DNA of 64,000 bases from assembly GCF_048403405.1 (NCBI RefSeq), contig NZ_CP183131.1. One strand, given 5' to 3'. A model generated the notes under the pieces. The model was not told the DNA's origin. It worked only from the letters and a program-made list of their open reading frames with translations, and made no database searches. The DNA is from Escherichia coli (lineage in GTDB: Bacteria; Pseudomonadota; Gammaproteobacteria; Enterobacterales; Enterobacteriaceae). The translations under genes and the position numbers were made by a program. Positions 3,416 to 28,701 of the stretch are shown here, in pieces (position 1 is the first letter of the stretch; each line of letters begins with the position of its first letter).

Positions 3416-3421
3416 ATACTG

Positions 3422-6219: not shown

Positions 6220-6270
6220 ACGGCTTCCTTTAATCAGGGAGGGTGCTAACGGGTATAGGAAGTATAAACC

Positions 6271-12849: not shown

Positions 12850-13669
12850 GGCACTGTTGCAAAGTTAGCGATGAGGCAGCCTTTTGTCTTATTCAAAGGC
12901 CTTACATTTCAAAAACTCTGCTTACCAGGCGCATTTCGCCCAGGGGATCACCATAATAAAATGCTGAGGCCTGGCCTTTGCGTAGTGCACGCATCACCTC
13001 AATACCTTTGATGGTGGCGTAAGCCGTCTTCATGGATTTAAATCCCAGCGTGGCGCCGATTATCCGTTTCAGTTTGCCATGATCGCATTCAATCACGTTG
13101 TTCCGGTACTTAATCTGTCGGTGTTCAACGTCAGACGGGCACCGGCCTTCGCGTTTGAGCAGAGCAAGCGCGCGACCATAGGCGGGCGCTTTATCCGTGT
13201 TGATGAATCGCGGGATCTGCCACTTCTTCACGTTGTTGAGGATTTTACCCAGAAACCGGTATGCAGCTTTGCTGTTACGACGGGAGGAGAGATAAAAATC
13301 GACAGTGCGGCCCCGGCTGTCGACGGCCCGGTACAGATACGCCCAGCGGCCATTGACCTTCACGTAGGTTTCATCCATGTGCCACGGGCAAAGATCGGAA
13401 GGGTTACGCCAGTACCAGCGCAGCCGTTTTTCCATTTCAGGCGCATAACGCTGAACCCAGCGGTAAATCGTGGAGTGATCGACATTCACTCCGCGTTCAG
13501 CCAGCATCTCCTGCAGCTCACGGTAACTGATGCCGTATTTGCAGTACCAGCGTACGGCCCACAGAATGATGTCACGCTGAAAATGCCGGCCTTTGAATGG
13601 GTTCATGTGCAGCTCCATCAGCAAAAGGGGATGATAAGTTTATCACCACCGACTATTTGCAACAGTGCC
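12850..13669 (-). mobile_element. IS26: IS26, complete 820 bp (tnp26 12902-13606, minus strand)
   Basis: Terminal IRs at 12850-12863 and 13656-13669; identical Tnp26 ORF; inverted relative to the copy at the window start. Confidence 0.97.
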
Positions 13670-13962
13670 GTATCACTCATGGCCTGTTTCGGCTTCACAA
13701 AAAAATGGTTCATTTTGTGCGCAAACGTCCAGCTTTCAGAATCGCCAAAAGCATGAGTGATATAGGTTTCGTCAGGCGCGACAACAATGTGGGTAGCCAC
13801 ACCGGCGATAGCGTCAATTTTGACCACATTAACAGGGTTATAAACAACGCTTTTAATGCGATAGTCATAAGGATAATTGCGGCCAACCTCAAGCGCCATA
13901 ACGTTAGTGGCCGCGCCTCCCAGGACTGACAAAACGACTGCTGAAAGAAGTAGTTTTTTCAT
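13670..13962 (-). pseudogene. traO: traO (VirB9-like), 5' portion including signal peptide; interrupted by IS26
   Basis: MKKLLLSAVVLSVLGGAATNVMA signal peptide then VirB9 N-domain; ORF reads into the IS26 IR; 8-bp gtatcact at the junction. Confidence 0.8.
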
Positions 13963-13972
13963 GGGGCAGCCC

Positions 13973-14359
13973 TCAGTTAACTTCAGGGTTGACGCGATAA
14001 CTCGTCACGCGGAAACCCAGCGGGTTGACATAACGCTGCTCAGCATTCATCGCCAGCGATTTATATTCATACCCCATAATGGCAATCCAGCGCTGCGGCT
14101 GATCATCAACGGGATTGCTGCGCACGCGGCGAACCGTAGTAAAGCGTATCGTTGCTACGCCGTGCGGTTTATCGAGGATCACAGAGTTAATCTTCACGCG
14201 GGTCGTTTCACTGTCGCCCAGAACCTTATCAAGACCGTTGCGGCCCTTGAACTTGCTCTGGTAAGACTCTGCCACGTTCGGCGTGGACATTAAGCCAACG
14301 GCCGTTATGCTCTCTAGTTGAACGACGGATCTCTTCCGAAACTCCACGCAAAAAACCAA
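13973..14359 (-). pseudogene. traE: traE (VirB8-like), 3' portion only; 5'-truncated at a recombination junction
   Basis: C-terminal VirB8-type domain (…NPLGFRVTSYRVNPEVN); in-frame stop directly upstream of the first codon; no N-terminal TM region. Confidence 0.6.
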
Positions 14360-14732
14360 TTACATTGGCCCGGAATGTACGTCTCTTCTCCTCTATCTCA
14401 AGCAAGTAACTCAAGTAGAAGTAAAACGGTATCGAGACGAACAATGACAAAGGGAACCAGCCTTTTTCGCTGGCAGAAACAAAGAGTCTCGGCTCAAACA
14501 TTTTCATGGCGAGGGTCGCCATTAGCACAGAGACAACTACTGGAGTCACCGCCATCAAAAATCGGGAATGAAGGTACGCCATCCAGACCCCAGCGACTAA
14601 AGCTGTTAGCGAGAGGAACATAGCAACAACCAACGGGCTCGCATCAATGGCGATTAGCCCTATCTGGACGATAATGACGAAGCAAAGAAGCAATATTCTG
14701 TATAAAAATGACCGCATTCCAACCCACCTCAA
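14360..14732 (-). pseudogene. Multi-TM membrane protein, apparently 3'-truncated and frame-fused to traE-derived sequence
   Basis: 167-aa ORF with 3-4 hydrophobic helices; its last ~40 codons overlap the VirB8 fragment in another frame. Confidence 0.4.
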
Positions 14733-15313
14733 TCCAAGATAATCTTGCGCTTATCTTTCTGAATTTCGATAGGCTGCTCCGGTTCACTCAGAACACCCTC
14801 TGACGCTTTCAGATCTTGAATACTTGGAAAGCCCTTCCCTGCTCCTGCTTTTCTTGGTCTCTGCTCTGTTACCTCAATCGCTATTTCATCCCCCTCCCGG
14901 AACTGCGGGTAACAACCAGCGCGGTTGGCATAGCGATTCAACGACATTTTGAGCAGCCGGTATTTCTTTGGGCAGGTTATTTGTACTGACGCATCAGAGC
15001 TGCAAGCTGCGTCAAGCCGCCGGAAAAATTCCTCCGGTATCCCCTTTACAAGGAGATCGCTCAACTCATCCATAGGCCTTGAGCCGGTTGGCATCGGATA
15101 TGGCAACCTCCGGTATTCTCTGTAGATGTACCGCTTGATGACGATATGAAAGACGAATGCGGCAAAGCCCCACAAAGGGCCATTAAGGAGCCCCGCAACG
15201 ATAAGTAGCACCGACGGGAAGGGAACCCCTACGAAACTCGGCAGGACTTTAATCTTTACCATCGGCGTTGACCGACGCACACTCTCACTCATTTGCTGAC
15301 CCTTTACGTGCAA
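14729..15313 (-). CDS. Membrane-anchored hypothetical protein with C-terminal …PIEIQKDKRKIILD tail
   Basis: One TM segment; the C-terminal 14 aa nearly match the tail of the 16069-17253 product. Confidence 0.5.
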   Translation of the reverse strand: MHVKGQQMSESVRRSTPMVKIKVLPSFVGVPFPSVLLIVAGLLNGPLWGFAAFVFHIVIKRYIYREYRRLPYPMPTGSRPMDELSDLLVKGIPEEFFRRLDAACSSDASVQITCPKKYRLLKMSLNRYANRAGCYPQFREGDEIAIEVTEQRPRKAGAGKGFPSIQDLKASEGVLSEPEQPIEIQKDKRKIILD

Positions 15314-15713
15314 CCTTGTACTGCACTTTCAGATCGTAACCATACACTTCCTGATGAAGGACTTTCACGGGGACACCTTCAACGGTCCCCAGGTACACGC
15401 TCAGCTCAACTTCCGGAACATCGTCCCTGAGACCCAGTACATTGCGCCACCCAGTCGATGTCTTCTGGCAGTGAGCGCCCACCCTGTCATGCCGGTAGTA
15501 AATGTCTTTGTTATCTCCTTGGCAGATGAAGAATCCACTAACCTGCCCCGTCCTTAACACCCACTTGCGGTTGTGGAAGGTAGCTTCTTTCTCCACCTCA
15601 GTGGACTTGTCTATAGCCACCGGGCTTACCACCAGCTCTTGTGCGGCCAAATCAGACACAAGGCCTATTACCAACGCGGATAACAGAGCGGCCATAGCCG
15701 CCCGTGTCATCAT
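15285..15713 (-). CDS. Secreted hypothetical protein, paralogous to the periplasmic domain of the 16069-17253 product
   Basis: Signal peptide; shared pattern KW..L.G…G(F/Y)F(I/V)C.G. Confidence 0.5.
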   Translation of the reverse strand: MMTRAAMAALLSALVIGLVSDLAAQELVVSPVAIDKSTEVEKEATFHNRKWVLRTGQVSGFFICQGDNKDIYYRHDRVGAHCQKTSTGWRNVLGLRDDVPEVELSVYLGTVEGVPVKVLHQEVYGYDLKVQYKVARKGSANE

Positions 15714-16069
15714 ACTGCCGCCTCGTGAGTGGCATCGGCAAAGAATTTGCCTTGTTTGTAGATCTCGTCCTTCTCGAACGAGATAGCATCCGCACGACTG
15801 CTGAATGGGCCATAGCTTTTACCGTCGATCAGCACCTTCCACTGGCAACGCCAAACACGAGTCCATGCCGCAATCTTTGACTCGTCTGAACAAAGTCCGC
15901 GAATAACATAGAACGCAATCATTAGAATGCCGCTCGTCGGCACGATGCGCGAAACCCTTGTTTTACTGTATTCCTGCACTTCAAGGCCTTTGAAGGAAAC
16001 CTCATCGGCAAACCCGCAGACCTCACCATTTTTGATTACGATGCGCTTTTTGCTCATAACCGACCCCAC
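15710..16069 (-). CDS. Hypothetical protein
   Basis: 119-aa ORF, start/stop coupled with neighbours in the same operon. Confidence 0.4.
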   Translation of the reverse strand: MGSVMSKKRIVIKNGEVCGFADEVSFKGLEVQEYSKTRVSRIVPTSGILMIAFYVIRGLCSDESKIAAWTRVWRCQWKVLIDGKSYGPFSSRADAISFEKDEIYKQGKFFADATHEAAV

Positions 16070-17253
16070 TAATCCAAAATAATTTTGCGCTTGCCTGGCT
16101 GTACTTCGATTGGCTCTTCCTTTTGCACCTTTGGTGCCGGAGCTGATGAGCTGACAACCACCGGTTCTCTTTCTGTGTTTTGTTGCTGGCGCTCACGGAG
16201 TTCATCCACTGAGGGAGGCTCATTGCTTGGTCGTTCAGCCCTTTCTGCACGTCGGGCTTCTCTTAACAACTCATCAATTTCGGAGTCGCTCCGGTTATTC
16301 ATAAAAGCTCTATAGGCAAAGAAAATCAGCACCGGTACTATTGCCACCAAGAAGAAAGGAAATGAGCTTCCGCTATCTTCCACTGGCTTGGTACTGGCCG
16401 CGCCTGTATCGAATACGGTACGAATAACCGTTGGCGCGGTCATGATCATAATTGCAGGCATTATCCCCATCACAATTCCTGATGGGCTCTGCCTCATAAT
16501 TCCACTAGCAACCCCAAACACCAGCATCAATCCCGCTATGACTTTGACGAAAGAGCTATCCATTAGACCGATCATGGAGTCACTTACCTCCTCGAACGGA
16601 CTTTGAAACGCACTGGTATTGCGGTCAGTGTCTTGTGCAGCATTAATCTGCTTGGGAGGTTCACTCTTTGGTGCAGTCACTATGGATGACGCTGATTGTT
16701 GGCTGGCAGCCTTCTGCGTTTCACCATCCTGCTTGACCACCCCCAGATCCTGAGTTTTGACGTGCGTTTGTGCTGGTGGTGCTAACTGGTATTTGACTGC
16801 CAGGTTGTTGCCGTGGACTTCAATGGTTTGCAGGGAGATGGGTTTACCTTCCAACTTGGTCAGAGCTTCTTGGAGCGGCAGCTCCTGAGCATCAGTCATA
16901 CCGCCCATAAAGCCATTAAACCCGTCATCATGAATACGGCATCGCAGCCTTCCCGAATAGCTACGGTATTCACCTGGGCAAACAAAATAGCCGCCCTGAG
17001 GGCCATCCAGTTTGCGCCATTTATTGCTTTTGAAGGCCTCCACTTTGGTCACAACTGGCTGACCGTCATGGTAATCAATGACCGTTTTGCTCTCCGGGCC
17101 AGTGTCCTCTATCTTCTTGCTGCCTGAGTCATCTGAGAGCATTTGCCCCACCATAACGCCAGTCACAAAGTCACTGGCAAAGGCCGCAGGAGCTGCGACC
17201 ATGAGACCAACCAGCAAAAGAAGGGGGACGCGCCCTGTCCTTCTCATCACCAT
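16069..17253 (-). CDS. Envelope protein: signal peptide, periplasmic domain, TM helices, charged cytoplasmic tail ending …PIEVQPGKRKIILD
   Basis: 394 aa; domain order inferred from hydrophobicity; start overlaps the upstream DUF2997-like gene stop. Confidence 0.55.
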   Translation of the reverse strand: MVMRRTGRVPLLLLVGLMVAAPAAFASDFVTGVMVGQMLSDDSGSKKIEDTGPESKTVIDYHDGQPVVTKVEAFKSNKWRKLDGPQGGYFVCPGEYRSYSGRLRCRIHDDGFNGFMGGMTDAQELPLQEALTKLEGKPISLQTIEVHGNNLAVKYQLAPPAQTHVKTQDLGVVKQDGETQKAASQQSASSIVTAPKSEPPKQINAAQDTDRNTSAFQSPFEEVSDSMIGLMDSSFVKVIAGLMLVFGVASGIMRQSPSGIVMGIMPAIMIMTAPTVIRTVFDTGAASTKPVEDSGSSFPFFLVAIVPVLIFFAYRAFMNNRSDSEIDELLREARRAERAERPSNEPPSVDELRERQQQNTEREPVVVSSSAPAPKVQKEEPIEVQPGKRKIILD

Positions 17254-17441
17254 TCGTTCTGTTCCGTTTCGTGCTGGGTTTGACCAGCATTGAAGTGGTA
17301 CTCGGGTTTCAGCTCTTTTTCTTCGACTTCGAGCTCTTCCGGGCGAATACGCTGTTCCAGCGCTTCACAGGTCTTACCCTGAAACCCCGTGAAATCGGCA
17401 GCAATCTTGCCGCCCTTGATCTTGATGTTTACCTTTTTCAC
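17247..17441 (-). CDS. Small protein resembling the DUF2997 family
   Basis: 64 aa, MKKVNIKIKGGKIAADFTGFQGKTCEALEQ…; family assignment from memory. Confidence 0.45.
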   Translation of the reverse strand: MKKVNIKIKGGKIAADFTGFQGKTCEALEQRIRPEELEVEEKELKPEYHFNAGQTQHETEQNEW

Positions 17442-17489
17442 TTTGTCACCTCGTCGTTAAGTTCAACTAATCTGATTGCCTTGGCGCTA

Positions 17490-17882
17490 TTACCAAACAG
17501 CTTCCTCAGCTTCCAGTTCCAAAGTGCCATCGTGATGCTGCTTCACCGTCACGCTGAAACCTTCCTCTTTCAACTGCTGCTCGTAGTGGAAGGCAATGTA
17601 GCGATCCTGCACCTTGCTGCTTGCCTGCTGCGTCCAGCGGCCATAAGAGCCGTAGTTTTCCTGGTACTGCTCCCAAACACCGTTTTTTTCCTTGTAGCCA
17701 ATCCGGTGCTCCTTGTTGTTCTGGTCGATCAGAACAATCGGGTATTTCTCGAAGGTGTAGCCAGCGCCCACGCGGTACAGCTTTTCGTTTTCAACAACAA
17801 CGCCAACTCCCTCCAGAGCCTTCAACAGCAGCTCTTTGTCTTTGTAGGCGACCTGCACCTTGCCTTTTACGATATGGCTCAT
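17490..17882 (-). CDS. Protein resembling the DUF1257 family
   Basis: 130 aa, N-terminus MSHIVKGKVQVAYKDKELLLKALEGVG; family assignment from memory. Confidence 0.45.
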   Translation of the reverse strand: MSHIVKGKVQVAYKDKELLLKALEGVGVVVENEKLYRVGAGYTFEKYPIVLIDQNNKEHRIGYKEKNGVWEQYQENYGSYGRWTQQASSKVQDRYIAFHYEQQLKEEGFSVTVKQHHDGTLELEAEEAVW

Positions 17883-17886
17883 CTCA

Positions 17887-18225
17887 TCACTCCTGAGTTG
17901 TTTCGGGTGTCATGCCGTGTTCCGACATAACAAAGTTAAGCGCGGCAATGGAATAGTCTTGCCCGAGAGAAACTTCGATCTTTCCTTCTTTCTCCAGCTT
18001 TCGGCCAAGCTCGGTAAGGTTTTCCATCATGGGGATGAGCTTGAACAACGAACTCATGTAGGTGATCGATGTGGAAACGTCTCGGGCGAACTGGTCCAGC
18101 ACCTTACTCTTGTCGATAACCAGAGGCTCTGGTCTATCCACTCCATCTTTTTCTGACTGGAGTTTGCTGCACAGCTTGAGCAGCTCAATCCCCTTCTCAA
18201 TGTCTTGTTTGTACATAACGGTCAA
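17887..18225 (-). CDS. Hypothetical protein
   Basis: 112-aa ORF between the AAA+ gene and the DUF1257-like gene. Confidence 0.4.
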   Translation of the reverse strand: MTVMYKQDIEKGIELLKLCSKLQSEKDGVDRPEPLVIDKSKVLDQFARDVSTSITYMSSLFKLIPMMENLTELGRKLEKEGKIEVSLGQDYSIAALNFVMSEHGMTPETTQE

Positions 18226-18371
18226 TTCTCCTCTCTGCCGTTTTGATGCTCTCTCCTGGCCGCACCAGCTCGCTCCCTAGCCCACTCAGCTAGAGCATTG
18301 ATTAAGTCGCTGACTTCTGAGTGGAATATCAATGACACAGCAAGAGCAGTCCAAAAAATCCACTCCATCGC

Positions 18372-19835
18372 TTAGTCCTCGATGGCAAGTTTGCGTCCAG
18401 AGCCATTCTGCTCTTGAACATCGAAGTTATTGGCCGGATAGAAGCCTTGATCCCGCAAACTGCGAATCTGGTTGATGTCTTCCCGGCGAGTTTCACTGGT
18501 CGGGGTAATGCGAGTGACCGCATCCACCAGCGCTTCATTGTTGAGCTCTTTGTCCTGAGCGTTCGCCAGATACATCGCGTCAATGACGGCCTGTTCAATC
18601 TCTGCCCCGGTGTATCCCTCGGTGGTACGAAGTAGCGTAGGCATATCGAACGCGGCGATGTTGGCCTTCTGCTTGGCGAGGTGGATCTCAAAAATCTTCT
18701 GGCGCTCAGCCACACTTGGCAGATCAATGAAGAATGCTCGGTCCCAGCGGCCAGCTCGCATCAATTCAGGAGGCAGCGACTGAACCCGGTTGGCCGTCGC
18801 CACAATGAAGATCTTCTTCTTGCGCTCTTGAAGCCAGTAGAGGAAAGAGCCCAGCAGGCGCTTGGATACTTCGTGTTCGCCATCGGCATTACCAAAAAAC
18901 TTCTCCATCTCGTCAATCAACACAACAACGGGTGCGATCTGCTCAATGGTCTGCAATGCACGATTGAACTGGCGCTCGGTTTCACCGAGATACTTGCTAT
19001 AGAAACGGCCCATATCCAGGCGAACCAAGGTAGTGCCAAGTACACCGGCAGCGGCTTTTGCCGTCAGCGATTTACCACCACCAGGTACACCGGCCAGAAG
19101 GACACCTTTTACCGGAAGGTCTTTGTCCCAACCGGCTTTACGTATCTGGAGGAACTCCTTGAGGTTTTCGAGACCACCGACATTCCCAATATCAATGGCC
19201 TCAAGCACATCGAGGCCGACATCACGCAAGATGTGAGCTTTTTCTTTTCGGATCTCGCCCAGGTATTCTTCACCCTTGAATTTCAAGTAAGCGGAGTAGG
19301 TGAAGACGTTCTTCATCTGGGTGTGTGACAAGCCCAAGGCGTGGTTTGCGATGACAGCACGTTCGTTGCTCTCGAAGACTCCACCATCTTTCACGTTATC
19401 TTCACAGGTCTGGAGCAGTTTCAGGATTTCCTGATTGCTCATAGCCGGGAGATCGATGTGATAAACGAACTCTTCATTGAAGACGTCTTTGCCAGCGATG
19501 ATGTAGTTGATCCCCTCATTCTCCAGATAGGTCAGTGATGACTTGAGGGCTGGGAGTGTTTCCGGGTTTGCACGTTGGCGGTCGAAAAAGAAAGTGTCGA
19601 ACACGACAACTCCGTTTTTGGAGGACTTCTTGGACTCGTCCACCATTGCCTTCATCGTGCCTGGATCAGGCAGCTTCTTGAATGGCATTACAATAAAGTG
19701 CTTGCCGACTTTCTTTGCAATGTCAGAGAAAACGCTCTCTGCGCGGCCCAGCTCAAAAGTGCTAACGTTGATGACTGGAAAGGACAACTTGATTGGAATC
19801 TCAAGTTTGTCCATTTGCTGTGTAATATCGCTCAT
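18372..19835 (-). CDS. AAA+ ATPase (Ycf46/CbbX-like, C-terminal AAA module)
   Basis: 487 aa; Walker A GVPGGGKS, Walker B VVLIDEMEKF, arginine-finger region; N-terminal ~230 aa of unknown function. Confidence 0.8.
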   Translation of the reverse strand: MSDITQQMDKLEIPIKLSFPVINVSTFELGRAESVFSDIAKKVGKHFIVMPFKKLPDPGTMKAMVDESKKSSKNGVVVFDTFFFDRQRANPETLPALKSSLTYLENEGINYIIAGKDVFNEEFVYHIDLPAMSNQEILKLLQTCEDNVKDGGVFESNERAVIANHALGLSHTQMKNVFTYSAYLKFKGEEYLGEIRKEKAHILRDVGLDVLEAIDIGNVGGLENLKEFLQIRKAGWDKDLPVKGVLLAGVPGGGKSLTAKAAAGVLGTTLVRLDMGRFYSKYLGETERQFNRALQTIEQIAPVVVLIDEMEKFFGNADGEHEVSKRLLGSFLYWLQERKKKIFIVATANRVQSLPPELMRAGRWDRAFFIDLPSVAERQKIFEIHLAKQKANIAAFDMPTLLRTTEGYTGAEIEQAVIDAMYLANAQDKELNNEALVDAVTRITPTSETRREDINQIRSLRDQGFYPANNFDVQEQNGSGRKLAIED

Positions 19836-19877
19836 CGCTTATCCTTTAAATAAATTTCGACTTGTTGATCACCTCAC

Positions 19878-19906
19878 ATCATAAGTTCATTTTATGATGC
19901 TGTAAA
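19878..19906 (-). promoter_or_regulatory. Putative sigma70 promoter TTTACA-N17-TATGAT upstream of the AAA+ ATPase operon
   Basis: Minus strand: -35 at 19901-19906, -10 at 19878-19883, 43 bp before the start codon. Confidence 0.45.
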
Positions 19907-19908
19907 TA

Positions 19909-20841
19909 TCACCTTCCAACTCTGTAGCTGTTCACGGCGGACTCAACGCGCTTGACTGACACGTCTATACCATTTGTCACCAGCAACTCATGCACTTGGC
20001 AACAGGCCTGTTGTTTCAGGCCAAAGAACTCTTCGTTAACACGGGCATACTCTGCTGCCGAATTGGAGGCGGCTCGTCTTAGATCTGGCATCAGAGATTC
20101 AACGCGAGACTCTACTTTGTCCAGAGAGGAACTGGCAGACGACAAGCTGAACAGCGAGAAGACGCTCCCAAAGTCGAAACCATCATTCAAACCGGCAAAG
20201 TCCATACCCAGATCGATAAACTCAGTTGCCATTGAGTGGTGCAGTGAGCCCACAATGTCACGATGATCCCCCAGCGCATTTGCGAAGGCTTTCACAGCTC
20301 TCTTCGCATCGTCTATTTCACTGCTGGCCGAGGAGTTTGACATCGACGACATGACGGAAATGCCCTTGTTGTCAGTCACAAGGTCGAGAACCTCCATTGT
20401 TTGTGCTGATGAAACACTGGAAGAGGCCTCACTGATTTCACGTAAGGCTTTTTGCCCCATGTCCACCAGTCGCTTGTTGCTCTCGTGGAGTCGAGATGCG
20501 GCGTCAAGCCTATCTTGAGCTTGGGTGATTCGTTCCAGAATCTGGCTACCGTCAATCGCTTGCTTCACGGCCCGAGAAACCAATCCCTCTTTGAGCTGGT
20601 CTCTCCCACGGCGCAAATACCGCAAATCGCTGTTATGGCCTTTTAGTGCTGAACGTATAACGGCGATGTCTCGACGAAACTGCCAGAACGTTATAATTTT
20701 TTGCCAGATCCCCAACTGAGCACGCTGTTGGCAAAGAGCTTCGTACTCTGCACCTTTCTCTTCAACCTGGCTGAGAGCTGCGGTAATCCTGTCTTGATAT
20801 TGCCGGTCGTCAGCCAAGTAACTTTGAATTGCTTGTTCCAT
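19909..20841 (-). CDS. Hypothetical protein (Ser-rich middle region)
   Basis: ORF; ATG at 20841 preferred over the TTG at 20853. Confidence 0.45.
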   Translation of the reverse strand: MEQAIQSYLADDRQYQDRITAALSQVEEKGAEYEALCQQRAQLGIWQKIITFWQFRRDIAVIRSALKGHNSDLRYLRRGRDQLKEGLVSRAVKQAIDGSQILERITQAQDRLDAASRLHESNKRLVDMGQKALREISEASSSVSSAQTMEVLDLVTDNKGISVMSSMSNSSASSEIDDAKRAVKAFANALGDHRDIVGSLHHSMATEFIDLGMDFAGLNDGFDFGSVFSLFSLSSASSSLDKVESRVESLMPDLRRAASNSAAEYARVNEEFFGLKQQACCQVHELLVTNGIDVSVKRVESAVNSYRVGR

Positions 20842-20854
20842 CCCGTACCCCAAA

Positions 20855-20874
20855 AACTTTCACATGTGAAAGTT
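20855..20874. promoter_or_regulatory. Palindromic operator-like site AACTTTCACATGTGAAAGTT (copy 1 of 8)
   Basis: Perfect 20-bp palindrome directly upstream of the 19909-20841 gene. Confidence 0.5.
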
Positions 20875-21035
20875 CATTCTTTCTTTGTTCTGCCAGTACA
20901 AAGTATTTTGCCTTAGAACGACCTCACACCCCGCCCCTGCTCACGCCCATTTTGGGCAATTACAGATTCAGCATTTACAGGCTTATAATGTGATGCCGTA
21001 ATAGACAAATAAAAAACGGCATAGCCGTTTTTACC

Positions 21036-21299
21036 TTACTTTGCTTTGCTCCGGCCCCCGCATAGTGCATTACCAATGCGTGATGAAAAATCCTTCCATT
21101 CTGGACTGTTCCGGTAGTCATCCTGTCCAGTTGCTTGTTCCTGGCTGGTCGATGCGAATTGATTGAGAGCATCCGGGCACGAAGAGCAGACCCCGATACC
21201 TTCCACTCTATTCACGCGAAGCCAGTGACACGGTTGACCGTTTTCAACACAAGCGTGATCATCGGTGCATCCGCACCCTATACATTTAGCAGTGAGCAT
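21036..21299 (-). CDS. Cys-rich small protein, possible zinc-binding
   Basis: 87 aa with CxGCGC…HxC…C…CSSC. Confidence 0.4.
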   Translation of the reverse strand: MLTAKCIGCGCTDDHACVENGQPCHWLRVNRVEGIGVCSSCPDALNQFASTSQEQATGQDDYRNSPEWKDFSSRIGNALCGGRSKAK

Positions 21300-21326
21300 A
21301 AGCGCCTCCCCAAGTAAATTAACAAC

Positions 21327-21355
21327 ATCATAGTATCATTATGTGATGCTGTAAA
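21327..21355 (-). promoter_or_regulatory. Putative sigma70 promoter TTTACA-N17-TATGAT
   Basis: Same architecture and near-identical spacer as the 19878-19906 promoter; 28 bp upstream of the 21299 start. Confidence 0.45.
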
Positions 21356-21402
21356 TATTAAAAAGAAAGCGGCCATAGCCGCCCTTCCGAAGTAATTTTC
21401 CT

Positions 21403-21900
21403 TTAGTGGTTGTCTTGGCCCTGTTTCCAAGCGACGAATGCCTGCACTAGCGGTACGCCATCATCACTCAAGGCATTCCCTTCTATCCATCCGCCTCGTA
21501 TGACGACAGACTGCCCTGATTCCAAGCCAAAAGGTTCCCACTCAGAAGCCACCGGGGAACCGTCCACCAGCAGGTCGAGATCTTCAATCCATTTATCCCG
21601 GCCATCCAGAGTTTTCCAAACTGAGTCATCGACCCAAAAGGCCTTGATTTGTTCTGGTGTGGCATTGGTCCAATCGTTGTCTTTCCCGTCAGCAAGTGAA
21701 AGTACAGAGTCAACCGTTTGCTGCCAGTTCGGCCAATCTTCTTCGACAACAACGCAAGTAAGCGAGCTCTTGCCATTTGCTCTGCGGCCATCATCAACCT
21801 TCCGGATCAGCCTTTCCAGTGTCGCCAGCTCCTCATCGCAGAGCACGGCCTGTGCATCGCTTATCTTTGCCACGAAGTAACGTGCTTCAAGCATCGACAT
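21403..21900 (-). CDS. Hypothetical protein
   Basis: 165-aa ORF. Confidence 0.45.
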   Translation of the reverse strand: MSMLEARYFVAKISDAQAVLCDEELATLERLIRKVDDGRRANGKSSLTCVVVEEDWPNWQQTVDSVLSLADGKDNDWTNATPEQIKAFWVDDSVWKTLDGRDKWIEDLDLLVDGSPVASEWEPFGLESGQSVVIRGGWIEGNALSDDGVPLVQAFVAWKQGQDNH

Positions 21901-21902
21901 AA

Positions 21903-22391
21903 TTATTTTCCTCCCCAGGGCACAAGTTTTGTCGAATATCCAAGCATTAGTGGGTGCTTCGGGTCCCCCGAACCAGTCACGCCAAATGCCAATACCGGCT
22001 TCCCAGATGCAACGAGCTGCTCTAAAAGCCTGTCCAAATGAACATGCAAAGACTTAGGCAGCTTAGTTCGGCTCCCCCAGCAGGGCACCAAGACATCAGC
22101 ATCCCGAATAATCCTTTCCAAGTGGATTTCATTTTCAGGCCCGACAGGATCAACCGCCGTAGCCAGCTCTCGAACGTCGGTCGCCCGAAAAGCAAAAGCA
22201 TTACCGACTATGAATCGCCTCCCTCCGTTGACCTTGGTAAACCCTATCCACTTTCTGACCGTGTGATCGTCCTCGGTGGCCGTGGCCGTAGAGCCGTTTA
22301 CACCAAAATAACCGAACACAAGGCCTTCGGGTTGCACATCCCTTTCCAGACGGTATCTGTACATGCCGCACTTGCTGATAATTGCACTCAA
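21903..22391 (-). CDS. Hypothetical protein, possibly DUF1643-like
   Basis: 162-aa ORF; weak resemblance recalled from memory. Confidence 0.4.
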   Translation of the reverse strand: MSAIISKCGMYRYRLERDVQPEGLVFGYFGVNGSTATATEDDHTVRKWIGFTKVNGGRRFIVGNAFAFRATDVRELATAVDPVGPENEIHLERIIRDADVLVPCWGSRTKLPKSLHVHLDRLLEQLVASGKPVLAFGVTGSGDPKHPLMLGYSTKLVPWGGK

Positions 22392-22481
22392 AGTGTCACC
22401 TCTTTTTGAATGAAAAATGCCCTTTCACAGTTGCATTTTTTAATGCTGTGATAGGATAAAAGTGTAAGTTGAAAAGGAGAG

Positions 22482-22823
22482 ATGACCATGAAACATGTAC
22501 TGAATATCGCGCTGATGGCTGTTGTTATTCTTGGCCTGGCTATGCTTGAGGCCACCAACTGGGGTTACGCAGTGCTGGCTATCCCGGCAGTGATTTGGGC
22601 CAAGTCGGTGCTCAACCTTCTGCACAAACTGCCGGTTCTGGCTGCTGCTTTTTGGATTCTGGTTGCTGTTTTCGCGTGGCAAGCGGCACTTGTTGGTATC
22701 CTGTTCTATGGCGTACTTGCGACCCCTAAAGCGCCAGCAAACACCAATGGCAAGAAAAGCCGAAAAGCCAATCTGATGGGCACTTACAGCTACGACTTTA
22801 AAACCGGCGAATGCTTTAGCTAA
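22482..22823 (+). CDS. Small membrane protein (paralog of 44971-45333)
   Basis: Three hydrophobic helices; N-terminus MKHVLNIALMAVVILGLAM… versus MKHVVNILLLGMVLLGIAM… in the paralog. Confidence 0.55.
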   Translation: MTMKHVLNIALMAVVILGLAMLEATNWGYAVLAIPAVIWAKSVLNLLHKLPVLAAAFWILVAVFAWQAALVGILFYGVLATPKAPANTNGKKSRKANLMGTYSYDFKTGECFS

Positions 22824-22837
22824 GACTGGCTCCACGG

Positions 22838-23317
22838 TTATTTCTCCTCAGCCTTCCTGATGGGCGCTCTCAGCGCTCTCAGGACAGCTTCTTCAAGAGC
22901 TGCGGCCCCTGCCCTATCACGTCGCTTTGTTAATGCCCCATATTGCTTCCTGATGGGTAGCATCAGCTCTTCGAGTTCATTGCGCTTCCTATCGTCGGCT
23001 TCAAGTTTCTCGCTTCGCGCCAAGGCTTCGGCTTGCTCGCTTTTTGCTTGCCACTCTATCTTGTCGCCTTGCACTTCCCATGCTTTAACGTAATGAGCAT
23101 CATCCAGACCTTTTGCTCCGTTGTCCGAAAACGAGGCCCCTGAGTAAATGCCACCGACAACCCAGCGCCTTTTGCTTTTTCCCTTTGAGAAATACATCTC
23201 ACGGCCTAAAACACCATCGCGCAAAGTGGCTACCGAGATAAATAGCCCAGCGTCCCCTTTCCTAAAGCCGCAGAACACAAACTCAAGCGGTTCGTATAAA
23301 TCACTCATGCTGATCAC
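22838..23317 (-). CDS. Hypothetical protein
   Basis: 159-aa ORF. Confidence 0.4.
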   Translation of the reverse strand: MISMSDLYEPLEFVFCGFRKGDAGLFISVATLRDGVLGREMYFSKGKSKRRWVVGGIYSGASFSDNGAKGLDDAHYVKAWEVQGDKIEWQAKSEQAEALARSEKLEADDRKRNELEELMLPIRKQYGALTKRRDRAGAAALEEAVLRALRAPIRKAEEK

Positions 23318-23711
23318 TCCGAAGAACAGACAAGACCTTCTCAGCTCGCTCCTGGAGGTCTATGAGTTCGGCAGCATCATTACCGCTCAATGACATGTCC
23401 CCGCCATAGAGGCGATACTCAACGCTGTCCATCGCCTGGCGAAGCAATCCTAGAAGAGCATTCACGTTTGCCGGTGTTGATAGGGCGACGGCTTCACCTT
23501 TCAGCTCACGTCCATTAAATTCCGACCACTCGGCTATGCCTGTCAGTTCGCAACAATTTGAGCAGGACATACTGGCAACATTCTGGGGATCGTCTGGACA
23601 GTGTTCATTGATGACAAAGTTCATCTCGTCACTGCCGCACTTTCCACAAATGATGTGTACTTTTTTGCCCATGCTGCTGCCCTTAGTGGAGAGTCTGCTC
23701 TTCCACAACAA
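23301..23711 (-). CDS. Hypothetical Cys-rich protein
   Basis: 136-aa ORF with CGKCGS…CSNCC. Confidence 0.4.
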   Translation of the reverse strand: MLWKSRLSTKGSSMGKKVHIICGKCGSDEMNFVINEHCPDDPQNVASMSCSNCCELTGIAEWSEFNGRELKGEAVALSTPANVNALLGLLRQAMDSVEYRLYGGDMSLSGNDAAELIDLQERAEKVLSVLRSDQHE

Positions 23712-23877
23712 TCATCCCGTCAACCAAGCTGATTGTGGCGGGACCGCAGTTACCCAGCACCTCAGCTTTGACTCCGTTGTTCAACGCGACATAAAGCCGT
23801 CTCGCCCCGTTGGTGACGCGGATGCCTTTCTGGTCGAGTTGTTCAAGCATTTCTTCGTAGGTAATTTTTTCGTCCAT
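23683..23877 (-). CDS. Hypothetical small protein
   Basis: 64-aa ORF. Confidence 0.3.
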   Translation of the reverse strand: MDEKITYEEMLEQLDQKGIRVTNGARRLYVALNNGVKAEVLGNCGPATISLVDGMIVVEEQTLH

Positions 23878-24128
23878 CAGTTCTCCTCAGCAAGGATCTC
23901 GTCGATGAGGTTCTTTGCTATCAATCTGGCATCCAAAGGGACAGCCAGGCTGTCAATTCTGCCTCTTTCATGGGCAACAATGAGTTGCGCCTTCCAAGCT
24001 ATCCCGGAAAGAGAAGCATCAGGTTCTTTACCTGAGCTTCTCATACATCTTGCGTTTCGGTACGCCGCCAGCCACTCAGGTCTGGTTGAGTTATAACGCC
24101 CAAGGCCAGCTTTTCGTTGGAAGCACAT
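23877..24128 (-). CDS. Hypothetical small protein
   Basis: 83-aa ORF; palindromic site and promoter-like motif upstream. Confidence 0.3.
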   Translation of the reverse strand: MCFQRKAGLGRYNSTRPEWLAAYRNARCMRSSGKEPDASLSGIAWKAQLIVAHERGRIDSLAVPLDARLIAKNLIDEILAEEN

Positions 24129-24140
24129 TCATCGCGCACC

Positions 24141-24169
24141 TTTACAGATTCATTTTATGATACTGTAAA
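24141..24169 (-). promoter_or_regulatory. Promoter-like palindromic element TTTACAG-N15-CTGTAAA
   Basis: Shares the catcattttatgat spacer with the other recurrent promoters. Confidence 0.35.
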
Positions 24170-24191
24170 CAATAAAAAGACACCTTGCAAG

Positions 24192-24210
24192 ACTTTCACA
24201 TGTGAAAGTT
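24192..24210. promoter_or_regulatory. Palindromic operator-like site ACTTTCACATGTGAAAGTT (copy 2 of 8)
   Basis: Between 24218-24766 and 23877-24128. Confidence 0.5.
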
Positions 24211-24217
24211 TTCTGGT

Positions 24218-24766
24218 TTACATCTGCTCGCTTGGATCAAACCCCAAAGCCTTGCACACGTCATCCAGGTCATCGAGCGTGAAGAATCCCAGCGTCAGTT
24301 CCCCGGAGCGCTTCGCGGGGTTATAGCGAACTTTGATAGGCCTACCCGTAGCATCGCTCATCAGGGTCTCCAGGCGCTTAATGTCTGCATCCCTGTCCAC
24401 TTCTTTGCCCTTCGCTATCGCCTCAAATTTATGAACCGGTGTCCTGGTATGCAGGAGATCCCTCAGGAGCTTTTCTCTCTTGCTGAAAGGTAACTTAGCC
24501 ACGGCCCTCACATGCCCCAGGGTGATCTTGCGTGGATTTCTGAGCCAGAGTGTTAGCTCTTCCTCCGATAGCGTACCGGCGCGTTTCAGGTGTGTAACCG
24601 TATAGACCTTCTCAATACCCAGATCCTCTCTGATCTGACTGTTTGAACGCCCCTCTCCGCTTAGGAACGCGACCACATAGGCCTTTTCTGCATCAGTCAT
24701 GCCTGGATGCTGGTGGTAGTAGTCAATGGCTTCTCTTGCATCGAGCAGTAGGGGTAGGTTGTTCAT
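24218..24766 (-). CDS. Putative HTH DNA-binding protein, weakly ParB/KorB-like
   Basis: 182 aa; segment …ITLGHVRAVAKLP… resembles the ParB GHARAL region; low certainty. Confidence 0.4.
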   Translation of the reverse strand: MNNLPLLLDAREAIDYYHQHPGMTDAEKAYVVAFLSGEGRSNSQIREDLGIEKVYTVTHLKRAGTLSEEELTLWLRNPRKITLGHVRAVAKLPFSKREKLLRDLLHTRTPVHKFEAIAKGKEVDRDADIKRLETLMSDATGRPIKVRYNPAKRSGELTLGFFTLDDLDDVCKALGFDPSEQM

Positions 24767-24928
24767 TCAGGACACCTTTTAGTCACATGACTATATCGAG
24801 GCTTATTCTACCCCCTATTTTAGTCACATGACTACTTACTGACATTTCGGCCCCCATCGCCGCCGATTTTTCTTGATTATAGGTTTGAATCTATATAGGA
24901 TTGCACCTATATTAAGTAAGGAGAAATC

Positions 24929-25279
24929 ATGTGGGTCATCGAGACAACCGACACCTTTGATGAGTGGTTCGATGCTCTGGATGATACCGATAGAGCAAAC
25001 GTGCTGGCTTCGATGATGGTGCTGCGAGATAGAGGCCCCATGCTGTCGAGGCCATACGCGGATACTGTTAACGGTTCATCCTACAGCAACATGAAAGAGC
25101 TTCGGGTCCAAAGCAAAGGAGATCCTATCAGAGCGTTCTTTGCGTTCGATCCAAAGCGTAAGGGGATTCTTCTCTGCGCCGGTAACAAGACCGGGGACGA
25201 GAAAAGGTTTTATGAAGTAATGATCCCAATTGCAGACCGTGAGTTTGCGGCGCACTTGGATAAATTGAAGAAGGAGTGA
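24929..25279 (+). CDS. higB: Type II toxin, RelE/HigB-like
   Basis: 116 aa; followed 4 bp later by an XRE-HTH antitoxin gene (toxin-first order typical of HigBA). Confidence 0.65.
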   Translation: MWVIETTDTFDEWFDALDDTDRANVLASMMVLRDRGPMLSRPYADTVNGSSYSNMKELRVQSKGDPIRAFFAFDPKRKGILLCAGNKTGDEKRFYEVMIPIADREFAAHLDKLKKE

Positions 25280-25283
25280 CGTT

Positions 25284-25586
25284 ATGGCAAGAACTCTTGA
25301 CCAAATGCTGGCAACAGAAAAGCCTGAGGTTGTTGCCAAAGCACAGAAAGCGGCCACTGAGATGTTACTGAACATCCACTTGGCAGAGCTTCGTGATCGC
25401 ATGAACCTTACCCAGGGGGAAATTGCTGCATCTCTGGGTGTGAGACAGCCGACAGTCTCCGAGATGGAAAAACCTGGACGAGATCTCAAGCTGTCGTCCA
25501 TTAAGCGGTACGTTGAGGCCTCCGGTGGCAAGCTACGCCTCGATGTTGAACTTCCGGACGGCACCCACTACGGCTTTGCCGTTTAA
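25284..25586 (+). CDS. higA: Type II antitoxin, XRE-family HTH (HigA-like)
   Basis: 100 aa; HTH LTQGEIAASLGVRQPTVSEMEK. Confidence 0.65.
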   Translation: MARTLDQMLATEKPEVVAKAQKAATEMLLNIHLAELRDRMNLTQGEIAASLGVRQPTVSEMEKPGRDLKLSSIKRYVEASGGKLRLDVELPDGTHYGFAV

Positions 25587-25612
25587 CTCGATACGCCCCG
25601 TTATGGGGCGTA

Positions 25613-25906
25613 TTACTTCTCTTGCTCTTCTTCCAGCCGTTTTCGGTATATCTCTCCTGCACGTTCCCTGCCATCGTCGGTCAGCCTAAAGGCCAGCTTT
25701 AGAGAAGCATTCCGGTACTTGTTCAACAGGCCGTTCTCCACCAGCGTGTGGCATGACGTTCGGAAGTTCGTTCCATGAATACCGCTCTGGCGAGCTGAAT
25801 TGATCATCTCCAGTATTTTTACACCTGGTACAGGCTCGGCTTTTCCACCGGCCTCAATTGCGTATAGAATGAACAAAACGTCTTTTTGAGTTGACGACAA
25901 TCTCAT
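25613..25906 (-). CDS. Hypothetical protein
   Basis: 97-aa ORF. Confidence 0.35.
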   Translation of the reverse strand: MRLSSTQKDVLFILYAIEAGGKAEPVPGVKILEMINSARQSGIHGTNFRTSCHTLVENGLLNKYRNASLKLAFRLTDDGRERAGEIYRKRLEEEQEK

Positions 25907-25993
25907 CCCTTCCCCTTATTCATGTCTGATATGAATAAGGCTCCCACGAAGGAGCCTTATGTAAACCTTATTCATGTGTCACATGATTAAGAT

Positions 25994-26266
25994 CTAGTTC
26001 ACGGAGTCTTTCAACCCCTTACCAGCTTTGAACCCAGGAATGTTGGCCGCCGCGATCTGGATGTTCTCTCCAGTCTGGGGATTCCGCCCGGTTCGCGCTG
26101 CGCGTTCCTTAACGTGGAAAGTACCAAACCCAGTGAGCGCTACTGTCCCACCCGCTTTAAGCTCCTCTGTCACTGAGTTGATCAGCGCATTTACCGCAGC
26201 TTCGGCCTTTGCTTTGCTAATGTCAGCGTCTTCGGCCACTTTCATAATCAGTTCACTTTTGTTCAT
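25994..26266 (-). CDS. HU-family nucleoid-associated DNA-binding protein
   Basis: 90 aa, [67 protein letters not shown]…. Confidence 0.85.
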
Positions 26267-26323
26267 CGTTATTCCTGTTTGTTTTCTTGGTTACTGTTTA
26301 CACCTGCATACTCTGGGGTGTGG

Positions 26324-26920
26324 TTAGTGCTTTCTTCGCCACTCCCAAGGGGGAGTTCTCTCCGATTCCGGTAATGCCCAGAGACCTCGCTTATCGGCTT
26401 TGGCTTCGGCCTCCAGCTTGAACAGCTCCGGTGTTTTGGCGTACTGCCGGTACACCCACGCACTCCCAGAACGGACCATTTCGGCATTGACCCATTTGCC
26501 ATCGACATAAAGGTTGGCGACCAGACGGCCATAACGGTCTTTGTCGATTTGCTCGACTTTAATCATTCGACCAAACACCAGATCGGACAACGCCTGTTTC
26601 GCCTTTGAGCCGTAGGGTTGTTTCTTCTCTGGGGTGTCGATTTCCGCCAGCCTTACCCGGTACTGGATTTTGCCGCTCCGGCAATCTTTCCCGGAGTCAC
26701 AGCTTTGTTCAGTCAGGACCTTGACCGTATCACCGTCAGACACCCCCACAACCTTCGCAGTAAAGGTTTCTGCCCATACCTGAGGGGCCACCACCAGCAT
26801 GGCTACCAGGAACGCTGAAACCCCCGTATTTTTCACAAAACCTAACCTCATAATCACTCCATCCAAATTACTTTTTTTTCCCAGCCGGTAGAGCCTTGGC
26901 CCAACAGAGCCTTGTTTCAT
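26324..26920 (-). CDS. Secreted thermonuclease (staphylococcal-nuclease-like)
   Basis: Signal peptide then SNase-like core (VVGVSDGDTVKV…RLAEIDTPE…YGR…); true start probably the internal Met (MRLGFVKN…). Confidence 0.7.
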   Translation of the reverse strand: MKQGSVGPRLYRLGKKSNLDGVIMRLGFVKNTGVSAFLVAMLVVAPQVWAETFTAKVVGVSDGDTVKVLTEQSCDSGKDCRSGKIQYRVRLAEIDTPEKKQPYGSKAKQALSDLVFGRMIKVEQIDKDRYGRLVANLYVDGKWVNAEMVRSGSAWVYRQYAKTPELFKLEAEAKADKRGLWALPESERTPPWEWRRKH

Positions 26921-27081
26921 CCACCTTGCTGTCTACGATTCGACAGGCATCCCAGTTAAGAGATGACCAGTGAGCAATGGCAGAGGCCAACCAGTACCAC
27001 GGTGCCGTAAACACCGGCTGGCCCCCTTCCTTCGTTTTAAATACCTGGTATCGCATGTTGATCCTCCTGTTTGGGTGAGGC

Positions 27082-27984: not shown

Positions 27985-28156
27985 CGGCCCAGCGAAGGGC
28001 GTCTCCCATATGCGTGAAAGCGCGTTTATTGTTATCCTGCTTATTCACCCTGACCGGCGTCTTTTGGTCACGAGGCTGTAGTAGCCAGTACCCGGCCTCT
28101 TCCCTGATTAGTTCTGCGGCCACCAGAAAGCCGTTCTTCGTTGCAATGATCATCAT
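27926..28156 (-). CDS. Hypothetical small protein
   Basis: 76-aa ORF. Confidence 0.3.
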   Translation of the reverse strand: MMIIATKNGFLVAAELIREEAGYWLLQPRDQKTPVRVNKQDNNKRAFTHMGDALRWAGDPELAKQFDAEGEEHANS

Positions 28157-28701
28157 CAGCTCCCGTGGTTAAGCCAGTAGGCATAGATAGTGATGGCAAG
28201 GCCTCCCGCGAGCACAATGACTGCGGCGGTACGCTGGACCCACTTCGATGCACCAAACCGCGCCAGGTGTCTCCCCAGGAACTGGAAAGGTGCTGTCTTT
28301 CCGATAGCGCGAATCACCCAGGAGATTGCCAACAGAAGGATGGCTGTGGCCGGGTATATACCAACCCCTAAGAGATTCATCTCTCCGACCGCGAGCTGAT
28401 AGATGAATGCCAACAGCATGGCTACCGCAGTCAATACAGCTACAACCTTGGTCCCGTTTCGCCAGTCCCACGCTCGACGTGCGTCACTGGTAAAACTCAC
28501 CATCGAGACAAGGAACGGCATAAATGGCAGGTTCATGCTGGTGGGTTTATCCATGAATGCGTCAAGACCCACAAACATGGCCGTCATCACCACATAGAAC
28601 AACAGGGCGGGGACAAGCATGTCGCGTAAAGACCGAACCTGGTTGGCGTTCGCGTTTTGAGTATTCGTCGTCATTGTGTTTGCCCCTTCAACATTCCCCA
28701 T
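28156..28701 (-). CDS. Integral membrane protein
   Basis: 181 aa with 4-5 hydrophobic helices. Confidence 0.5.

Follow-up and report, generated by a model that had tools for sequence, protein, structure and literature searches.

An AAA+ operon of the IncC plasmid backbone

In a 64,000-nucleotide stretch of Escherichia coli DNA (contig NZ_CP183131.1 of assembly GCF_048403405.1; hereafter the window) we analyzed a minus-strand operon at positions 14229–19835, which belongs to the backbone of an IncC (IncA/C2) plasmid and encodes an AAA+ ATPase, proteins of the DUF1257 and DUF2997 families, a small soluble protein and several envelope proteins. The system is real, conserved and undescribed. Its genes have already been sequenced and annotated in more than 500 plasmids, albeit as "hypothetical proteins". 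Our literature search, whose coverage was incomplete so that a description elsewhere is possible, returned no paper describing the function of the operon, and none of the mentions of DUF1257 or DUF2997 that it found dealt with function. New here are the fixed order of the ATPase–DUF1257–DUF2997 triad, the recurrence of the module in nine loci, a C-terminal tail motif shared by its proteins, a TraA-like membrane domain and the absence of the operon from the plasmid pVCR94deltaX.

In the direction of transcription the operon begins with the gene of a 487-aa AAA+ ATPase, recognized by its open reading frame (ORF) and by Pfam (18372–19835; minus strand, as are all genes listed here), followed by those of a 130-aa divergent DUF1257/Ycf35 protein (17490–17882; profile and fold), a 64-aa DUF2997 protein (17247–17441; Pfam) and a 394-aa envelope protein (16069–17253; hydropathy and paralogy). 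Next come a conserved soluble protein (15710–16069; 119 aa, or 115 aa from the ATG at 16057), a secreted 142-aa protein with an N-terminal hydrophobic signal (15285–15713; assigned also by paralogy), an inner-membrane protein (14729–15313; 194 aa, or 187 aa from the ATG at 15292) and a truncated membrane protein of 167/162 aa (14229–14732), the 3′ part of which is lost at a junction. An earlier note on this DNA had described these genes as tightly packed or overlapping, and the ORFs are indeed as described: neighbors overlap by 1–8 nt (7 nt between the stop of the 64-aa gene and the start of the 394-aa gene) or are separated by gaps of at most 48 nt, a 423-bp insertion being the exception. The stop of the last gene (14229) lies beyond the point at which that note had begun the operon.

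The region is widespread among related plasmids. Window positions 14200–20000 match 1239 plasmid records, 529 of them over at least 80% of the query and mostly at 99% identity or more, and the matching records are typed IncC, MOBH and MPF_F. Genes for the 130-aa protein are present in 588 plasmid records, among them that of the IncA plasmid pRA1 (97.7%).

Core components

The ATPase contains a single classical-clade AAA module with its lid (Pfam AAA, 9e-27, residues 245–371, plus AAA_lid_3), preceded by a family-specific domain of ∼230 aa and followed by a C-terminal tail ending in GSGRKLAIED. The AAA module belongs to the clade of the unfoldases. The best matches of the ATPase in the PDB, VAT/p97/Cdc48 (6e-45), cover this module only, and its match to phrog_8638 (3e-81) aligns residues 122–471. 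Homologues of 490–540 aa, several of them labeled SpoVK, Ycf46 or Vps4 by their sources, share 33–35% identity over 92–98% of the query, and a 54% identical homologue is named ycf46 by UniRef. By this full-length similarity the protein is assigned to the classical-clade Ycf46 family; of the double label "Ycf46/CbbX-like" proposed earlier, the first half fits both the similarity and the AAA-plus-lid architecture, and the second is not supported. The N-domain used alone as a query recovered close fragments only. Hydropathy indicated no transmembrane segment and Pfam no protease domain in the ATPase. Vcrx089, a CbbQ-type AAA protein of the hde locus, was considered as a counterpart and is a different protein. 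The Streptococcus satellite phage Javan368 (L011, 4001–5578) encodes a protein related to the ATPase along its full length (31% identity, 96% query coverage, tail TRKVLV), with no recognizable DUF1257 or DUF2997 gene alongside.

The identity of the 130-aa protein was less apparent. As a single sequence it had no match to Pfam DUF1257 (PF06868) at E ≤ 0.1, so the DUF1257-like character claimed for it from the sequence alone is not borne out by a direct Pfam match. A profile of its family, which recovered only 48 clusters among 1.84 billion representatives, reached Pfam DUF1257 in 14 of 26 remote matches (best 8e-34). The AlphaFold2 model of the protein, with a predicted local distance difference test score (pLDDT) of 87, matched DUF1257/Ycf35 models at a template-modelling (TM) score of 0.6–0.8 and a probability of 1.0. 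Taken together with synteny with the AAA and DUF2997 genes, the profile and the fold establish it as a divergent DUF1257/Ycf35 protein.

The 64-aa protein matches Pfam DUF2997 (PF11211) weakly (E 6.5e-4), as had been anticipated, as well as phrog_23133, and is annotated as DUF2997 in RefSeq. Its gene directly follows the DUF1257 gene in all loci examined. When the two proteins were modelled as a linker fusion, DUF2997 reached a pLDDT of 74–95 and the C-terminal strands of DUF1257 rose from ∼70 to 95 compared with DUF1257 alone, so that, judging from the model, DUF2997 is probably the heterodimer partner of DUF1257.

The conserved soluble protein of 115/119 aa, which had not been singled out before, carries the motifs RVSxIVP and AAWTRxWxCxW and is 42–55% identical to its counterparts in six other loci. 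It has no match in Pfam, NCBIfam, PHROGs, PADLOC or the PDB. Given this conservation, we add it to the triad as a fourth core member of the IncC-type module. A candidate relationship to the proteins that follow DUF2997 in phages SM1 and L338C was unsupported (hhalign E 0.1).

Conservation of the triad and of the IncC-type module

The earlier note mentioned a co-occurrence of AAA+, DUF1257 and DUF2997 genes in other genomes, and this was borne out. The order AAA–DUF1257–DUF2997 is kept in ten of the loci collected for comparison (L003, L005–L009, L016, L017, L022 and L023), two of which (L008 and L009) are contigs with a canonical DUF1257, and the triad is found also in Pseudomonas phage SM1 and Rhizobium phage L338C. 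The phage DUF1257 candidates were negative by hhalign against the 130-aa profile and were confirmed by Pfam instead. In both phages (L012, SM1, 3159–7394; L013, L338C, 3168–7008) one or two extra genes lie between the ATPase and DUF1257 genes, and the triads stand immediately downstream of lysis genes, namely holin and endolysin in SM1 and a peptidoglycan hydrolase in L338C. More broadly, the three families (DUF1257/Ycf35, DUF2997 and Ycf46) occur in cyanobacteria, plastids and archaea, and ycf35 and ycf46 have been lost together in red-algal plastids (PMC5940233).

Within this wider distribution, an IncC-type subfamily can be delineated in nine divergent gammaproteobacterial loci, each with an added protein of 112–130 aa. 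Besides IncC itself these are a Pseudomonas oryzihabitans plasmid (L017) with a matching metagenome contig (L003), Rheinheimera hassiensis (L005), Pseudomonas sp. ANT_H4 (L016), P. aeruginosa (L023), the Logan contigs L006 and L007, and a contig (L022) whose ATPase is assigned by the sources to Vibrio jasicida. Here the genes are co-conserved in the same order as on the plasmid. The subfamily is rare (four loci in 100,044 species genomes), and no IncC-type DUF1257 was found in the viral contigs searched. It is borne on gammaproteobacterial mobile elements and consists of the triad, a fourth, conserved soluble protein (115–130 aa) and between one and four accessory proteins that evolve fast. 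As a rule these lie in the inner membrane and have a pilin-like helical hairpin, to which some add a periplasmic Cys-loop domain. The accessory proteins are barely alignable across loci, as opposed to the 42–55% identity of the fourth core protein.

Two versions of the module (L003, 9079–14322; L006, 230–2023) adjoin yjf-type genes, in both cases with DUF1190 and GSP_synth; L003 has in addition DUF350, DUF2491, PspA_IM30 and DUF2170, that is, a PspA-family envelope-stress cluster.

Envelope proteins and dispensability for conjugation

The 394-aa protein is composed of a signal peptide, a periplasmic Cys-loop domain, a two-helix membrane segment resembling TraA pilin (residues 217–281), a third transmembrane helix and an acidic, Pro-rich cytoplasmic tail that ends in KRKIILD. 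The 377-aa start used by RefSeq is probably wrong, because it would remove the canonical signal peptide. The periplasmic Cys-loop domain of the 394-aa protein recurs on its own as the 142-aa protein (30% identity over 101 aa, against residues 63–158 of the larger protein; E 2e-11), and the membrane-plus-tail part recurs in the intact 189-aa form of the truncated protein (E 9e-7). The 187/194-aa inner-membrane protein has a transmembrane hairpin and a cytoplasmic tail ending in DKRKIILD. Sequence comparison thus confirms the suggestion that the envelope proteins are paralogous, and describes all four as mosaics of two paralogous domains. No match to the 394-aa protein was found in the PDB.

The TraA-like segment raises the question of whether the operon is an accessory of conjugation, taking part in pilin storage or recycling or in mating-pair function of the IncC F-type type IV secretion system (T4SS), or modulating it in particular hosts. 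The two-helix hydrophobic hairpin and its paralogues align with NCBIfam TraA_gammapb (NF041281; 4.5e-12), the 394-aa protein is 28.6% identical to the plasmid's own traA product (E 2.5e-4), and the operon resides on conjugative IncC and IncA plasmids. The TraA_gammapb score, however, is 45.9 bits, below the family cut-off of 50, and the segment is embedded in a multidomain protein, between a periplasmic domain of 190 aa and the third transmembrane helix with its cytoplasmic tail, so that membership among TraA pilins is not indicated. The earlier statement that none of the proteins has a recognized role in conjugation, partition or replication accordingly needs one qualification, the sub-cut-off pilin-like segment; no characterized family fits, and in searches of Pfam, NCBIfam, PHROGs, PADLOC and the PDB none of the proteins fell into a characterized family of known role.

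An argument against a conjugative role comes from pVCR94deltaX (NC_023291.1; L018–L021), which has no homologue of any operon gene, its backbone running from higB through sul2 and a 103-aa gene to parA. Most functional genetics of IncC has used this prototype plasmid, which is able to replicate, is stably maintained and conjugates efficiently (PMC3915882). Moreover, module loci exist without T4SS genes within 10 kb and the triad is carried by phages, and the AcaCD-dependent promoters named in the consulted part of the pVCR94 regulon study (vcrx035 and vcrx098) belong to a plasmid that lacks the operon. We therefore consider a conjugation accessory very unlikely. For the same reason, the AcaCD-dependent promoter reported ahead of vcrx035 could not be assigned as the driver of the operon. 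As to exclusion, this property of IncC plasmids is fully accounted for by eexC and sfx (10.1101/2023.05.15.540745); vcrx018–019, which the sfx study considered as exclusion candidates, map to another part of the backbone and have no connection with the operon. Since pVCR94deltaX lacks the operon and exclusion is explained by eexC and sfx, the operon is accessory and dispensable for replication, stability/partition, conjugation and exclusion.

pVCR94deltaX also lacks the 314-aa gene found upstream of the operon in the window and a 414-aa methyltransferase gene, and has only a weak match (26% identity) to the ParB-like gene. In intact IncC plasmids these genes and the operon stand between higB and the 103-aa gene before parA. 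Functional screens performed on pVCR94deltaX are consequently blind to them.

A shared C-terminal tail and a proposed mechanism

The variable accessory proteins of all IncC-type loci carry, at their extreme C-terminus, a peptide of the R-K-h-x-L-D type (h, hydrophobic). It reads KRKIILD in three IncC proteins, VRKIILD in L005, GRKLFLD in L017, SRKLHLD in L016, QRKV(V/I/L)L in four proteins of L006, (I/V)RKISL(D/S) in four proteins of L022, KRKIILD and RRRIVLD in L023, and FRKVPVD in L007, where it is borne by a leucine-rich-repeat (LRR) protein. The ATPase terminates in a sibling motif, G-R-(K/R/Q)-h-x-h, represented by tails such as GRKLAIED, GRKLSIE, GRQLTVD, GRALELG, GRRVAV, SRQINLN and GRRISV. 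This ending is kept through more than 60 members of the subfamily, as compared with a looser basic and alternating-hydrophobic ending in generic Ycf46-like proteins. The first hydrophobic residue is the same in the ATPase and in its putative clients in five of seven loci. A fixed regular expression applied to the last nine residues matched 13 of the 97 called proteins of four loci, all 13 being module proteins (expectation 0.0056 per protein), and within the window the motif is confined to three operon proteins out of 109 ORFs. The accessory tails are predicted to be disordered, and hydropathy would place them in the cytoplasm, the compartment of the ATPase and the small proteins.

Overall, these features are best accommodated, with a rough probability of 0.38, by a membrane-coupled AAA+ protein-remodelling machine that would engage the tails of its own membrane proteins. 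The shared tail would serve as a handle for a single receptor within the cytoplasmic core, which could be the N-domain or the pore of the ATPase, or the 115-aa protein; the latter is favored because it co-occurs with tail-bearing clients. DUF1257 and DUF2997 would form a heterodimeric cofactor, and the ATPase's own tail might act as a competing pseudo-client or as a docking strand. ATP hydrolysis would then pull, unfold or extract the membrane proteins and in this way switch or turn over a membrane assembly facing the periplasm.

The proposed mechanism has parallels among known AAA+ systems. FtsH, Msp1/ATAD1 and Cdc48 in endoplasmic-reticulum-associated degradation (ERAD) are classical-clade AAA+ machines that act on membrane proteins via exposed cytoplasmic termini, as we propose here; unlike them, the IncC ATPase has neither a transmembrane segment nor a protease domain, and its putative clients are encoded in its own operon with a dedicated tag. 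The proteasomal ATPases (PAN/Rpt, Mpa and Cdc48) belong to the same AAA clade and carry C-terminal HbYX docking tails, which suggests by analogy that the short conserved C-terminal peptide of the IncC ATPase may dock onto a partner. The IncC tail differs in being basic-basic-hydrophobic-x-hydrophobic-acidic rather than hydrophobic-Tyr-X, no peptidase is encoded in the operon, and the proteasomal system has no counterpart to the same tail being present also on putative clients.

Several observations weigh against such a machine. Binding of the tails by a core protein is a prediction, and the putative DUF1257–DUF2997 heterodimer is deduced from confidence values obtained with alignments that differed between two runs. 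The regular expression was composed after the sequences had been seen; the argument from the tail rests on its recurrence in independent, highly diverged loci. When the ATPase tail and the tail of the 394-aa protein were modelled in fusion beside DUF1257 and DUF2997, both stayed in coil with pLDDT below 55. The model thus gives no support to docking on DUF1257/DUF2997 and argues against that pair as the receptor, which leaves the 115-aa protein or the ATPase itself as candidates. Two tail-bearers fit poorly: a 77-aa lipoprotein-like ORF (L003, 7170–7403; L017, 12457–12816) ends in ARRIIL and would be periplasmic if exported, out of reach of a cytoplasmic receptor, and the L007 protein (1752–2627) is a soluble LRR protein of a metagenomic version of the module rather than a membrane protein. 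The associations with envelope-stress and with lysis genes amount to two loci each. Finally, truncated copies are present in many clinical IncC plasmids, the window included, so that selection for the function must be weak in those settings.

The undocked tails are in keeping with a different proposal, namely that the shared peptide is a degron or sorting tag for a host factor, for example a cytoplasmic protease, and that the triad has its substrate elsewhere among the host proteins, which may also hold for Ycf46 in cyanobacteria. Hydrophobic tails at the C-terminus are well known as protease tags (ssrA-type degrons), and the generic triad exists without tail-bearing partners (L008 and L009). 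On the other hand, the ATPase bears the same kind of tail, conserved through the subfamily; the tail residues co-vary between ATPase and clients locus by locus; in the loci examined no protein outside the module carries the motif; and with hosts spanning Enterobacterales, Vibrio, Pseudomonas and Rheinheimera the motif tracks the module and not the host. A tag addressed to the host is thus quite improbable.

Possible roles

For the remodelling machine proposed above, the most likely role would be an envelope-related one, of consequence only in certain hosts or when these are challenged, for instance by envelope stress, phage or a competing element. The hints come from the neighborhoods, with yjf/PspA-type genes in L003 and L006 and lysis genes in the two phages. 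A narrower version of this role, rather than a separate mechanism, would be envelope-stress response or membrane quality control of a Psp- or FtsH-like kind that buffers the cost of a large plasmid or membrane damage. It is favored by the DUF1190/GSP_synth neighbors, the full yjf-type set including PspA_IM30 in L003 and the lysis genes adjoining the phage copies, and in cyanobacteria ycf46 sits in a general/multi-stress operon (PMC7496141). Nevertheless, a Psp association is seen in only two of ∼10 loci and no Psp genes lie near the operon in IncC, which leaves this specific assignment unlikely.

The rapid divergence of the accessory proteins next to a conserved core, and the replacement of a membrane protein by an LRR protein in one version, are features that would also be expected of anti-phage or anti-plasmid defence by abortive infection, in which tail-bearing proteins act as envelope or cytoplasmic sensors and the AAA+ core as executor, e.g. 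through membrane permeabilization by the pilin-like proteins. Carriage on plasmids and in accessory regions near RES, BrxR-type winged-helix-domain, large-helicase and methyltransferase genes points the same way, as do weak scores of the AAA module with IetA and TRIP13 models, IetA being the best PADLOC match of the ATPase (6e-21). IetAS is likewise plasmid-borne and has a single-module AAA+ protein of the same broad clade. Against this, the NCBIfam model (IteA) gave only 65.6 bits against a cut-off of 510, the N-domain is different, and no IetS-type S8 protease was found among the operon proteins. In PADLOC-DB v2 nine of the ten proteins had no match, with nothing beyond the generic ATPase component and no partner protein recognized, and neither PADLOC nor NCBIfam, PHROGs or Pfam revealed a toxin, nuclease or protease domain. 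The triad is, in addition, carried by phages themselves, and its families are found in cyanobacteria and plastids, where defence is improbable. We regard defence as an unlikely explanation.

Among the closest known systems is Ycf46 (Synechocystis slr0374; plastid ycf46) with Ycf35. Like the IncC ATPase, Ycf46 has a ∼230-aa N-domain and one classical AAA module in 480–540 aa, and it is associated with DUF1257/Ycf35 and DUF2997 proteins. In Synechocystis the published cluster is ycf35 with duf2997 and fed7, and ycf46 is described in an slr0373-0374-0376 operon (PMC7496141); stress induction and a carbon-uptake phenotype have been published for Ycf46, and no mechanism (PMC7496141). In the IncC type there are, in addition, the 115-aa protein, membrane proteins bearing the shared tail, and the strict G-R-K-h-x-h tail. 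A bolder generalization, which we put forward tentatively and consider rather doubtful, is a new class of AAA+ system on multidrug-resistance plasmids, in which a Ycf46-type ATPase with DUF1257, DUF2997 and the 115-aa adaptor would pick clients by a dedicated R-K-h-x-L-D tag on interchangeable, fast-evolving membrane or LRR front-ends, in the modular style of conflict systems. If true, it would provide the first mechanistic handle on the long-open Ycf46/Ycf35 pair of cyanobacteria and plastids. The core triad is common to cyanobacteria, red-lineage plastids, archaea and phages, so whatever mechanism is established on an easily manipulated E. coli plasmid would transfer to Ycf46/Ycf35.

IncC and IncA plasmids are important carriers of resistance genes, including those for carbapenemases, and the operon makes up about a tenth of this backbone region. 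A role in defence, counter-defence or envelope adaptation, if true, would bear on the host range and fitness of resistance plasmids. The interest of the operon is tempered by its dispensability; the analysis nevertheless turns a set of hypothetical proteins into a defined four-part core with tagged accessory proteins and a testable recognition signal.

Promoter and upstream sites

The strong promoter proposed for the operon, TTTACA-N17-TATGAT, is present at 19878–19906 (minus strand), where it overlaps an inverted repeat with 8-bp arms, CATCATAA-N7-TTATGATG, at 19877–19899. The consensus match alone proves nothing, since the region contains six such promoter-like sites as against 6.0 in shuffled sequences. 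What makes the promoter credible, as a co-regulated backbone promoter, is that both hexamers are supplied by a recurrent palindrome of ∼29 bp, TTTACAG(C/T)ATCAT-AAA-ATGAwwCTGTAAA (the TTTACAGYATCAT...ATGATRCTGTAAA palindrome); TTTACAGYATCA has 8 sites in the window versus 0.42 expected. Copies of the palindrome lie at 19878–19906, 21327–21355, 24141–24169, 35424–35452 and 44360–44388, with weaker ones at 8052 and 47211, and precede several backbone operons; a similar element is found ahead of the ParB-like gene in an intact IncC plasmid (L001, ∼8215–8245). The pattern suggests that one plasmid repressor, with a regulon including the AAA+ operon, may act on these palindromes.

The palindromes are distinct from the 14-bp ParB/KorB-type sites. 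One of these parS-like sites, TTTCACATGTGAAA, lies at 20858–20871, just upstream of the 314-aa gene (19909–20853, minus strand) that precedes the operon. Exact copies of TTTCACATGTGAAA number 8 in the window against 0.31 expected, the others being at 24194, 29518, 29977, 33561, 34640, 44830 and 51558, and it is the core of parS-type sites bound by IncC ParB (PMC10954446). The 314-aa gene has no homologue in other module loci and, not being conserved with the module, is probably a separate unit.

The 3′ junction and the 423-bp insertion

The earlier note held that the operon is cut at its 3′ end by a traE junction, leaving the last gene incomplete, and this is what we observed. The break, at 14305/14306, is associated with IS26 and joins the operon to an IncN-like VirB8 fragment; homology to IncC extends as far as 14306. 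The fragment (13973–14359, minus strand; TraE-like, Pfam VirB8 2.2e-21 and pT212 annotation) derives from an IncN-type T4SS and stands outside the system; it is followed by an N-terminal fragment of VirB9 (13618–13962) and by IS26 (12902–13624). The truncated membrane protein keeps the first 137 residues of its intact 189-aa paralogue, the tail being swapped for 25 unrelated codons. In intact plasmids (L001) the 189-aa membrane protein, which ends in DKRKIILD, is followed by a 181-aa Zn-ribbon-like protein, a clear terminator and the ParB-like gene, so in the window the third membrane paralogue is tailless and the last gene is missing. Almost all type 2 and hybrid plasmids are reported to have lost 4.5–11 kb of a backbone segment called the "dcm1 region" through insertions of ARI-B (PMC6872532). 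IS26 interrupts the IncN-like T4SS remnant (12902–14359), which is itself fused to the truncated operon, and the VirB8/IncC junction recurs in other plasmids, e.g. pT212, there with intact virB9–virB11 and a phospholipase D gene.

The 423-bp insertion (17944–18366, minus strand) separates the ATPase and DUF1257 genes, and blastn of the window against L001 accordingly gives two blocks, 14306–17943 and 18367–29010. It is absent from type 1 IncC plasmids, and in all other versions of the module the two genes directly abut there. It provides an orphan ORF (17887–18225, minus strand; 112 aa, or 109 aa from the ATG at 18216). No homologue of this ORF was found in the other versions of the module, and it is absent from H6–H10; a 48-aa ORF (18222–18368) is unannotated and without support. 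As they are not conserved with the module, the 109/112-aa ORF, the upstream 314-aa gene and the terminal 181-aa gene of intact plasmids were rejected as core members. Two small insertions, i1 and i2, are among the features that define type 2 IncC plasmids (PMC6872532). The 423-bp insertion is probably i1; if so, i1 would be coding and not purely intergenic. The insertion with its orphan ORF was found only in type-2-like IncC plasmids.

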